Source: Eledone cirrhosa
Taxonomy: Eukaryota
Assembly (NCBI GenBank): GCA_964016885.1
Contig: OZ024745.1
Location: 83,452,001 to 83,516,000 of the forward strand
DNA length: 64,000 bases
Direction of reading: 5' to 3'
The position numbers and the translations under genes were made by a program. Shown one piece after another: positions 58,661 to 60,731 of the stretch (its first letter is position 1; each line of letters begins with the position of its first letter). Below the pieces are notes generated by a model, which had not been told where the DNA came from, searched no databases, and worked only from the letters and a program-made list of their open reading frames with translations.

Positions 58661-59015
58661 GATAGATATATATATAATATATATATATAATATATATATA
58701 ATATATATATATTATATATATATATATATATATATATATATATATATATATATATATATATATATATATATATATATATATATATATATAAACAATTAAG
58801 TTAAACATGTACATCTACATATGCATACTGAAATACTAGTATGCATATGAATACACACACGTATACATATGTAGATGTACCAAGTCTTTCACTGGTTACT
58901 TTACTGTGAGCAACCCAGCTATTCTGTATGTAAACACACAGACAAACCGGTTTTTAGAGTCAAACTGGTTTTCGAGGAAACGCCTTTCCTCTATTCTCCA
59001 GAAAGCCAGACAAGG

Positions 59016-59060
59016 AATATTGAACTAGTTTCGTTGTTGTTACAACTCATCAGCAATATT
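59016..59060 (-). ncRNA. Type I hammerhead ribozyme, family B
   Basis: Exact reverse complement of 59681-59725. Confidence 0.9.
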
Positions 59061-59587
59061 TACCTATCTACCGGCCTTTCTGGAGAATCGTAAAAGCACA
59101 TATCGTTATATGCTTTTTCTATGAAAATTAGTAGTGGGCAGACTAATTTGCATAGAGTGTGAGTACGCACCGGTTCAGCGGAGACGATAAAAACAAATAA
59201 CGAAACGAAATTAAATTTCGCTTCGTTTGTAACTCACTTTTGTATGACTGACGTTTAAACAATTAAGTTAAAAATGTACATCTACATATGCATACTGAAA
59301 TACTAGTATGCATATGAATACACACACGTATACATATGTAGATGTACCAAGTCTTTCATTGGTTACTTTACTGTGAGCATACCAGCTATTCTGTATGTAA
59401 ACACACAGATAAACCGGTTTTTAGAGTCATACTGGTTTTCGAGGAAACGCCTTTCCTCTATTCTCCAGAAATTGTTAATTGTTTAAGCGTCAGTCATACA
59501 AAAGTGAGTTACAAACGAAGCGAAATTTAATTTCGTTTCGTTATTTGTTTTTATCGTCTCCGCTGAACCGGTGCGTACTCACACTCT

Positions 59588-59595
59588 ATGCAAAT
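59588..59595 (+). promoter_or_regulatory. Octamer ATGCAAAT, 92 nt upstream of the HHR core (mirror copy 59146-59153)
   Basis: Exact motif in the same context as family A (CACTC.ATGCAAATT.G.CTGC). Confidence 0.5.
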
Positions 59596-59680
59596 TAGTC
59601 TGCCCACTACTAATTTTCATAGAAAAAGCATATAACGATATGTGCTTTTACGATTCTCCAGAAAGGCCGGTAGATAGGTA

Positions 59681-59725
59681 AATATTGCTGATGAGTTGTA
59701 ACAACAACGAAACTAGTTCAATATT
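59681..59725 (+). ncRNA. Type I hammerhead ribozyme, family B (canonical core; predicted cleavage after 59718)
   Basis: AATATTG-CTGATGA-GTTGT AACA ACAAC-GAAA-CTAG-TT-CAATATT. Confidence 0.9.
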
Positions 59726-60326
59726 CCTTGTCTGGCTTTCTGGAGAATAGAGGAAAGGCGTTTCCTCGAAAACCAGTATGACTCTAAAAACCGGTTTGTC
59801 TGTGTGTTTACATACAGAATAGCTGGGTTGCTCACAGTAAAGTAACCAATGAAAGACTTGGTACATCTACATATGTATACGTGTGTGTATTCATATGCAT
59901 ACTAGTATTTCAGTATGCATATGTAGATGTACATTTTTAACTTAATTGTTTAAGCGTCAGTCATACAAAAGTGAGTTACAAACGAAGCGAAATTTAATTT
60001 CGTTTCGTTATTTGTTTTTATATATATATATATATATATATATATATATATATATATATAATATATATATATAATATATATATAATATATATATAATATA
60101 TATATAATATATATATATATATATATATATATATATAATATATATATATATAATATATATATATATATATATATATATATATATATATATAATATATATA
60201 TATATAATATATATATAATATATATATATATATATATATATATATATATATATATATATATATATATATATATATATATATATATATATATATATATATA
60301 TATATATATATATATATATATATATA

Positions 60327-60731
60327 ATTTCATTCTAACCATTTATCGTTTTCGGTGTGCCCGGCCGACTAACTCACTCGATATGCAAATTAGGCTGCTC
60401 AGCCGTTAATATGCATAAGGAAAGTATATACTTTCAGACGTTCAACCAGCTGGCAGGAAGGTATACGATGTTGACGATAGCTAATAAGCTTGAAACTAGT
60501 ACATCGTTCCTGTGTCAGTGTTGAAAAAAAGGTGACGTGGTTGCCTAAACACTGTACGGCGTAATTCGGGCTGTTTGTTTGTTTACAAACAAACAAACCG
60601 AGCATTATAATAAATGTTCGGTAAACCATACGTGCATGTATATATGTGTGCATGTATGTATATATATATACATACTACTGTACGTCTGTATGCATATATG
60701 TATGTACGTATACATACATACATACATACTT
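60327..60731 (+). mobile_element. Retrozyme family A monomer (octamer 60383-60390; HHR 60465-60507 with C3 to U)
   Basis: Collinear with the reverse complement of 23510-23900. Stem I is ACGATG/CATCGT. Confidence 0.8.

Follow-up and report, generated by a model that had tools for sequence, protein, structure and literature searches.

Octamer-bearing hammerhead retrozymes of Eledone cirrhosa with a likely small nuclear RNA-type promoter module and the insertion signature of Penelope-like elements

Metazoan retrozymes that lack long terminal repeats (non-LTR retrozymes) are tandem repeats of 150–450 bp with a low GC content (under 45–50%) and type I hammerhead ribozymes (Cervera and de la Pena 2020, PMC7229834). 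A 64-kb stretch of the Eledone cirrhosa genome (contig OZ024745.1 of assembly GCA_964016885.1, forward-strand positions 83,452,001 to 83,516,000), called the window below and numbered from its first letter, holds copies of two repeat families, A and B, which by every feature examinable from sequence appear to be such retrozymes. They have no coding frames, their hammerhead units stand in tandem and near-identical copies are dispersed, so that a preliminary description of this DNA, which took them for non-coding retrozyme families, is borne out. Upstream of the ribozyme each unit carries a module resembling the promoters of host small nuclear RNA (snRNA) genes, and the life cycle that we favour, finding it somewhat more credible than doubtful, runs from this host-like promoter, probably served by RNA polymerase II, through cleavage by a double hammerhead to a unit-length and probably circular RNA, which the reverse transcriptase (RT) and endonuclease of Penelope-like elements (PLEs) would copy into (TA)n tracts. 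The copies and their parts in the window are the following.

58658..58790: (TA)n target tract to the left of family B
58791..59471, minus strand: inverted arm of family B, 1.44 units, 5′-truncated; its 3′ end, fixed site 2 (..TTAATTGTTT), abuts (TA)n
59000..59154, minus strand: second B module and hammerhead, in the inverted arm; 12-mer starting at 59154, hammerhead 59071-59000
59475..60018, plus strand: forward arm of family B, 1.17 units of 467 nt; its 3′ end, fixed site 1 (..TTATTTGTTTTT), abuts (TA)n
59514..59542, with a second copy at 59981-60009, plus strand: B tail hairpin, made of the AATTTCGTTTC tract, with one fixed 3′ end site on either side of it
59587..59636, plus strand: B promoter-like module; 12-mer TATGCAAATTAG at 59587-59598, degenerate part resembling a proximal sequence element (PSE) at +17, TATAA at 59631-59635
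59670..59741, plus strand: B type I hammerhead; CTGATGA at 59688, GAAA at 59709, stem III palindrome ACTAGT, triplet GUU, predicted cut after 59718
59861..59932, plus strand: B long hairpin, TATG-rich
60019..60326: (TA)n target tract in the interval between B and A2
60327..60731, plus strand: 0.9 unit of family A (A2 type); its 12-mer lies at 60382, with TCAGC at +17 and TATATAC at 60425-60431
Core at 60471 and triplet at 60499-60501, plus strand: A2 hammerhead; mutated core TTGACGA, triplet GUA
23455..24053, minus strand: 1.4 units of family A (A1 type); 12-mer TATGCAAATTGG at 23845, and a hammerhead with triplet GUA whose core, at 23756, is intact
24037..24352, plus strand: inverted, 5′-truncated arm of A1; it starts at the hammerhead core and runs into the 3′ tail of another repeat at 24350-24402

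The octamer ATGCAAAT lies at 59588 (+), 59153 (−), 60383 (+) and 23844 (−), and 92 nt in B and 80 nt in A separate its end from the hammerhead core; these spacings, the other motifs described beforehand, the ACTAGT stem III and the predicted cut after 59718 were all located in the sequence. Some of the described layout has to be revised. The B locus at 58791-60020 does have a monomer of 467 nt, but it is not a plain tandem, being an inverted pair of 1.44 units (−) and 1.17 units (+), and the A1 locus (23457-24352) is an inverted pair like it. The A monomer, put at about 425 nt, measures 427–447 nt in natural tandems and 505–551 nt at one locus, and A and B, described as diverged families, are indeed divergent (60% in one global alignment), yet they are homologous from end to end with the same order of hairpins. 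Unit GC content is 34–42%, and no frame of at least 120 amino acids was found inside the units except for read-through of TA. The A2 copy at 60327-60731 has the core TTGACGA in place of CTGACGA, a mutation that occurs in 2 of 39 A cores, and is therefore probably dead.

The genome searched amounts to 3.0 Gb. The B query gave 909 candidate sites, 38 of which were scored and contained 192 matches (the full-length ones 97–100% identical), and the A query gave 2699 candidates with 40 scored. The A and B repeats are young; their copies are 96–100% identical and lie on at least 12 contigs. One B array, on contig C5 (87.62–87.69 Mb), spans at least 27 kb and at least 58 units, possibly about 147 if it is continuous; beside (TA)n it ends at site 1, a 3′ end that dispersed copies have too. 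The B unit is also present in contigs of four public runs (kind not stated) from three organisms, with a depth of 4.5 in one run, and its 467-nt end-to-start joint occurs in contigs of two runs, which says nothing on circles because a tandem DNA array yields the same joint.

A filtered pattern built to skip typical A and B copies (octamer 12-mer, then 62–92 nt, then CTGAYGA-N-S) matched the genome 1557 times and its reversed control never. Reading about 60 sequences among the first 100 matches listed of these 1557 gave six further families, E, F, G, H, I and J, and a subfamily B′; the E unit has 328 nt. Family H is an octamer-bearing retrozyme-like repeat with stem III AATCGATT and old-looking copies, and in family G the module is preceded by several repeats of octamer-like and TCAG type, similar stretches occurring elsewhere without a ribozyme. 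A separate survey used 60 evenly spaced 10-kb samples (600 kb) from eight large contigs. These contained 33 type I hammerhead-like motifs (reversed control 0), of which 4 had an upstream octamer, 2 were E copies truncated before the octamer and 27 lay in octamer-less repeats, while six of the seven octamer 12-mers sampled fell within retrozyme units (reversed control 0). The pairing of octamer and hammerhead is beyond chance, and extrapolation from these six of seven 12-mers puts the octamer retrozymes at roughly 10,000–65,000 copies.

The promoters of host small-RNA genes serve as the comparison for the module. In three distinct U6 loci the octamer-containing 12-mer TATGCAAATKAG is found at −77, −78 and −79, in MRP RNA at −78 and in U13 at −76, and in U6atac it stands at −78 with one change (ATGGAAAT; this is the best locus, one of six U6atac loci examined). 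A TATA follows 47–49 nt after the 12-mer in U6, U6atac and MRP and about 45 nt after it in U13. The 12-mer was found at that position in none of 14 other, retrocopy-like U6 copies and in none of 14 distinct U1/U2/U5 promoters; all 14 of the latter have AATTA at about −90 and TCAGT between −54 and −58, followed after about 25–27 nt by a TATA-like stretch. RNase P has the TCAGT and no octamer and resembles the U1/U2 class, and a distal TTACCTCCC-like element at about −265 is common to U1, U2, U6 and RNase P. These elements were defined by alignment only. An Rfam scan of 140 kb around the snRNA clusters gave no further snRNA class. A search for the distal element together with the octamer returned 39 matches (control 1), namely U6, MRP, U13, retrozymes and unassigned sites, and no host gene with octamer plus TCAG was among the 17 inspected, the genes for 7SK, SRP, U3, U4, U11, U12 and tRNA-Sec lying outside the comparison. 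The octamer as a distal element of the vertebrate type was rejected, the host U1/U2/U5 genes having no octamer near −220 and a single one at −399 in one U1. In a U6 array on contig C19, an insertion of 190 nt resembling a short interspersed element shifts the octamer from −78 to −270 in some repeats. As for other animals, the proximal element PSEA of insects is about 21 bp long and its 3′ half, which differs between polymerase II and III genes, decides the polymerase, whereas vertebrate promoters are assigned to polymerase III by a TATA box (PMC1761439); SNAPc appears in PMC13652810 only as a gene at a loop anchor.

The B 12-mer is exact in 132 of 139 copies and is the same 12-mer as the upstream element of host U6, U6atac, MRP and U13; B and one host U6 promoter share 14 identical letters. 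In A, B, E, F, G, I2 and J it is followed by TCAG-like letters at +17 and by a TATA at +43 to +45. The U1/U2/U5 geometry, a TCAG motif with a TATA about 25–27 nt further on, is present in A, E, F, G, I2 and J, weak in B and absent from H, and H alone (3/3 copies), with its TATA at +48 and no TCAG, has the U6-like spacing of 47–49 nt that A, B, E, F, G, I2 and J lack. A matrix built from U1/U2/U5 only, with the octamer positions excluded, was ranked over 846 positions in 12 representatives. It placed +17 first in F1, F2, G and I2 (4/12) and within the top 11 in three more, including A1 and E at fourth to fifth; the rank was 33rd to 104th in B (93rd), A2, E2 and I1, and 808th in H. Compared with shuffles, the +17 motif has p ≤ 0.02 in 10 of the 11 representatives other than H, 0.10 in B and 0.6–0.9 in H. 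AATTA was not seen in the retrozyme alignment at the place it has in host U1/U2/U5, and the snRNA 3′ box, with one loose match in B and B′ and none in A or E, is given no weight.

Among 150 distinct copies, dominated by A, B and E, the first TATA-like site lies at +42 to +44 in 130, and the ribozyme core lies anywhere from +68 to +105. Because the distance from octamer to TATA is fixed while that from octamer to ribozyme varies, the module is likely a hybrid proximal promoter of the snRNA type that would act just 5′ of the ribozyme. Between B and B′ it is identical at 55 of 56 positions (43/44 without the ascertained 12-mer) against 88% overall. The earlier reading of the octamer as part of an snRNA-type promoter gains from its presence in host U6, U6atac, MRP and U13, with the correction that the octamer, judged by its position, is a proximal component of an octamer–TCAG–TATA module and not a vertebrate-type distal enhancer. 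Both geometries predict a start about 74 nt past the first base of the 12-mer, at purines just 5′ of the ribozyme core.

The hammerhead itself is well preserved. Rfam Hammerhead_HH9 matches 59670-59741 (+) and 59000-59071 (−) with 38.6 bits (E 3.1e-06 in the 64-kb scan) against a gathering score of 52, and the A hammerheads, which are not among the Rfam matches listed, were read directly from the sequence. Each unit has, as described, a type I hammerhead, for which self-cleavage is predicted. Alignment of 14 representatives shows no variation in the core, and of the ribozymes counted 147 of 148 in B and 37 of 39 in A have it intact. The cleavage triplet is GUC in B′ and GUA in 38 of 39 A copies. 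Stem III varies by family (ACTAGT, ATGCAT, ACATGT, AATCGATT) and stays palindromic or nearly so. A folding model gives it a probability of 0 in a single ribozyme and −6.8 to −8.2 kcal/mol as a two-copy duplex, a predicted pairing in keeping with the hammerheads of newt and axolotl, which depend on dimers (PMC7229834). The fold of the monomer exceeds shuffles in B (z −11.2 linear, −10.1 circular) and A (z −6 circular). Among 158 predicted pairs, B and B′ differ by 5 double-compensatory changes and 5 broken pairs where the null gives 0.9 and 20 (0/1000 shuffles); the reverse B′/B comparison confirmed the few breaks and not the double changes (2, p 0.19). On these models the B RNA fold appears to be under selection.

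The insertions of A and B carry the signature of Penelope: they are partial tandems with an inverted arm, they sit in (TA)n, and their 3′ ends fall at two fixed sites. Insertion anatomy was read at the 36 best-scoring B loci, 25 of which are inverted pairs. In the 24 pairs with both ends visible one arm always ends at site 1 (24/24) and the other ends at site 2 in 20, while the 3′ ends of simple insertions are at one of the two sites in 11 of 11 cases, nearly all adjoining (TA)n. Site 2 precedes site 1 by about 70 nt, giving B a tail of about 60–70 nt. The two sites account for 47 of 55 A arms, the first of them being fuzzy. The 5′ truncation is variable across copies and the 3′ ends are fixed; target-site duplications are unreadable in (TA)n. 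Three of 11 simple B insertions start 0–7 nt upstream of the predicted cut, a range picked post hoc and to be taken as a hint only. PLEs are likewise reported to insert into microsatellites as partial tandems with inverted arms and a tail on one side only (Craig 2021), and this tail has been shown to correspond to the interval that separates two internal priming sites (Frangieh 2024, PMC11167929).

PLE remnants in the window have matches to RT and a GIY-YIG endonuclease, with Pfam hits in three of six frames and the RT below its cut-off. PLE-like coding lies within 1.5 kb of 3 of 50 A/B loci and is missing from 47; in eight of eight loci that were extended, no PLE frame used an octamer unit as the terminal repeat at its end, one unit lay inside an interrupted frame, and several of the PLEs had terminal repeats of their own without the octamer. 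An RT and GIY-YIG frame between octamer repeats, the layout of an autonomous PLE with pseudo-LTRs, was not seen at the A/B loci examined. The arms, partial tandems and two fixed 3′ ends support the dependence of A and B on PLEs that had been proposed, and the 47 loci and the eight extended loci likewise support its corollary that the units are not 3′ untranslated regions of coding PLEs.

The life cycle may be pictured as follows. The module would bind the snRNA promoter machinery, and RNA synthesis would begin some 74 nt downstream of the 12-mer's first base (59660-59662 in B, with 60455-60457 as the A2 equivalent), ahead of the first ribozyme of a tandem copy, with the polymerase reading on through the next unit. 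Two features favour polymerase II: the TCAG motif and its TATA distance, which match U1/U2/U5 and not U6, and the runs of 4–6 T in A and B, which should stop polymerase III. Two ribozymes are predicted to pair through the stem III palindrome and to cut the tandem transcript at each ribozyme; since stem III (2 bp with a 2-nt loop) is unable to close alone and pairs between two, the tandem would be cut and the monomer circle would be stable. A monomer running from cut to cut contains the promoter of the next unit, so the upstream promoter would survive reverse transcription. A host ligase of the RtcB type probably closes the monomer, as published retrozymes suggest, ligase closure of retrozyme RNA having been shown for axolotl and mussel (PMC7229834). 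A PLE protein would then prime at the two fixed internal sites that flank the tail hairpin, and reverse transcription more than once round the unit would produce the partial tandems and inverted arms.

Several observations weigh against this life cycle. On the promoter side, the host distal TTACCTCCC-like element occurs in none of the five units scanned, octamer and TCAG do not occur together in any host gene examined, and the octamer belongs to U6-type genes. Family B has the weakest U1/U2/U5-like motif and is fitted slightly better by a small matrix of octamer genes (p 0.026), and I1 has no TATA at the expected place. Octamer and TATA are both inside predicted hairpins, so that RNA structure could account for part of their conservation. 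Octamer conservation in E–J and B′ is circular because those families were found through the octamer; there only the +17 and TATA positions are independent of that ascertainment. On the RNA side, all 148 B hammerheads counted carry the less usual triplet GUU, which cleaves more slowly, the E fold is no better than shuffles (z −1.6), and the compensatory signal in A is weak, with one of three comparisons significant. Among predicted retrozyme dimers of Xenopus, eight of nine did not cleave (Li et al. 2026, 10.64898/2026.07.22.740005), and PLE insertion in vitro proceeds without need of cleavage (Frangieh 2024, PMC11167929). Finally, no PLE sharing an A/B unit was found in the eight extended loci, no genome-wide search for such a partner having been run.

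The nearest competitor keeps the whole life cycle and makes the module a U6-type (type 3) polymerase III promoter, an option we consider unlikely for the families as a whole. In its favour, the 12-mer occurs, among host genes examined, only in U6, U6atac, MRP and U13, B shares 14 letters with a U6 promoter and has a TATA, the box that selects polymerase III in vertebrates (PMC1761439), and U13 has a similarly short spacing (about +45) and H exactly that of U6. It has to contend with a TATA that is 3–5 nt closer than in U6, U6atac and MRP, and with a TCAG motif like that of U1/U2/U5, host genes which also own a TATA-like stretch. The two T5 runs of B and the T6 run of A3 should moreover stop polymerase III before a full unit is made. 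Polymerase III is possible above all for H and B. Less probable again is a history in which the units are transcribed by read-through from neighbouring genes and the octamer region is kept as RNA structure or as protein-binding RNA, its promoter likeness being a relic or a coincidence. TATGCA does pair with a stretch 25–35 nt downstream, the TATA of A and B lies within a palindrome, tens of thousands of copies offer many chances of read-through, and the distal element is absent from the units scanned; yet from family to family only the pairing partner of the octamer changes, the octamer itself staying invariant, the ungapped octamer–TATA distance is fixed where the distance to the ribozyme is variable, and the independent U1/U2/U5 matrix finds its match at the predicted offset.

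The two other explanations deny the units an independent life. That they are pseudo-LTRs (pLTRs) or 3′ untranslated regions of coding PLEs, mostly in truncated copies, would agree with their PLE-like insertion anatomy, with the three loci that have PLE-like coding nearby and with the derivation of retrozymes from pLTRs in Li et al. 2026; we think it very improbable in view of the 47 loci without such coding, the absence, in the eight extended loci, of any frame ending in an octamer unit, the octamer-less terminal repeats that several PLEs bear there and the pure arrays of at least 58 units. Hardly credible is inert satellite DNA spread by recombination at the DNA level, with ribozyme and promoter no longer active: one long array exists, but copies 96–100% identical on at least 12 contigs have fixed 3′ ends in (TA)n, B and B′ differ by compensatory changes and the core is intact in 147 of 148 B ribozymes. 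Beyond the preferred life cycle of A and B, a broader and more speculative proposal, which we hold tentatively and incline to doubt, is that a clade of self-transcribing retro-parasites with circular RNA, of at least eight families and some 10^4 or more copies, captured the promoter grammar of host snRNA genes as a hybrid of the U6-type octamer with the U1/U2/U5 element and spacing; since family H has U6 geometry, related retrozymes may use polymerases II and III.

Families A and B resemble metazoan non-LTR retrozymes in being small low-GC tandems without coding, LTR, primer-binding site or polypurine tract, with a self-paired monomer and PLEs alongside (PMC7229834; 10.64898/2026.07.22.740005), and axolotl retrozymes in particular in a short stem III that needs dimers (PMC7229834). 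They differ in unit length, which at 427–467 nt is at or just over the published range (B slightly above), in that metazoan retrozyme RNA and circles have been demonstrated and those of A and B are predicted, and in the host snRNA-type module and the two-site PLE tail visible in them. The species covered by Li, Clavereau and Pollet 2026 were 31 vertebrates, 3 insects and 1 coral (10.64898/2026.07.22.740005). The words 'octamer' and 'cephalopod' have no occurrence in the accessible text of PMC7229834, and neither an internal promoter module nor the present lineage is described in the accessible parts of that paper, Li 2026 and PMC10886601, supplements aside, which may list such sequences. The open literature, as distinct from subscription journals and repeat databases, yielded no paper on octamer retrozymes, cephalopod retrozymes or the present U6 layout.

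A precedent for an snRNA-type promoter in a hammerhead satellite is newt satellite 2, a tandem hammerhead repeat with an internal promoter of this type that is said to be used by polymerase II (Coats, Zhang and Epstein 1994, cited in PMC2220036). A and B share with it the tandem hammerhead repeat, the promoter type and a dimer-dependent ribozyme, which is predicted here. The octamer of the newt promoter reportedly lies within a distal element, whereas that of A and B is proximal (about −74), like the octamer of the host's U6-type genes, and stands together with a TATA and a motif resembling that of U1/U2/U5. The schistosome Sm-alpha satellite is a further hammerhead repeat with its own internal promoter (Ferbeyre 1998, cited in PMC2220036). 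Stem I of A and B has a GUA bulge opposite UUCC. This presumably resembles the tertiary contact of Sm-alpha, whose promoter is said to be of polymerase III type with tRNA-like boxes, unlike the snRNA-type motifs of A and B. With endonuclease-bearing (EN+) PLEs (Craig 2021; PMC11167929) they have in common partial tandems, an inverted 5′-truncated arm, (TA)n targets, a stem-loop two-site tail and a hammerhead, and they differ from them in having no reading frame and a tail of about 60–70 nt against 30–40 nt. Other hammerhead repeats of the same genome, PLE terminal repeats included, are octamer-less (27 of the 33 sampled motifs). The module also recalls the bipartite snRNA promoters of insects (PSEA with PSEB or TATA, PMC1761439), having an upstream element of about 21 bp and a second box at a fixed distance, although the motif sequences are unrelated.

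How animal retrozymes are transcribed is left open in the retrozyme literature as far as the accessible texts go, the precedents found being two satellite studies of the 1990s, and A and B offer a predicted start, two motifs and a spacing rule for mutation, with host genes as controls. Retrozymes had been tied to Penelope by co-occurrence and phylogeny; the two fixed priming sites add a mark of mechanism. The families also form a natural series in which to study how snRNA promoters choose their polymerase. If the life cycle holds, tandem structure and ribozyme together would allow a promoter that lies upstream to pass to new copies through RNA. A by-product is an outline of the host U6 and U1/U2/U5 promoter elements, useful for guide-RNA expression.

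The remainder of the window is rich in other repeats. At a common GTAC the forward A1 arm joins the 3′ tail of an abundant fold-back repeat with half a hammerhead (24350-24402), a junction that possibly reflects a template switch; the same tail stands directly upstream of several U6 and U6atac retrocopies. Family C, a hammerhead family without the octamer, occupies 52288-52872 and 57456-58040, as 98% identical inverted repeats flanking a 4.5-kb TA-rich palindromic microsatellite, and also 40254-40775 and 27286-27414; it is probably a PLE terminal repeat, because at other loci it borders PLE coding. Family D, with a long stem II, forms an inverted hammerhead pair (29152-29376 / 29757-29980) ahead of a PLE-like frame at 30082-32110. 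Broken Penelope-like elements lie at 18941-23390, 35599-39429, 43973-48433, 11380-12235 and 62887-63810, three of them with inverted terminal repeats or a palindromic layout. Rfam microRNA matches in the window, far under the cut-offs, were rejected as artefacts of AT/GT microsatellites. Positions 1-10923 hold two tandem GC-rich copies, about 92% alike, of a long interspersed element with endonuclease and RT frames. An RTE-like element spans 13587-16124, and RTE-like 3′ fragments lie at 28046-28424 and 58151-58657, the (TA)n tail of such a fragment being the host site of family B.

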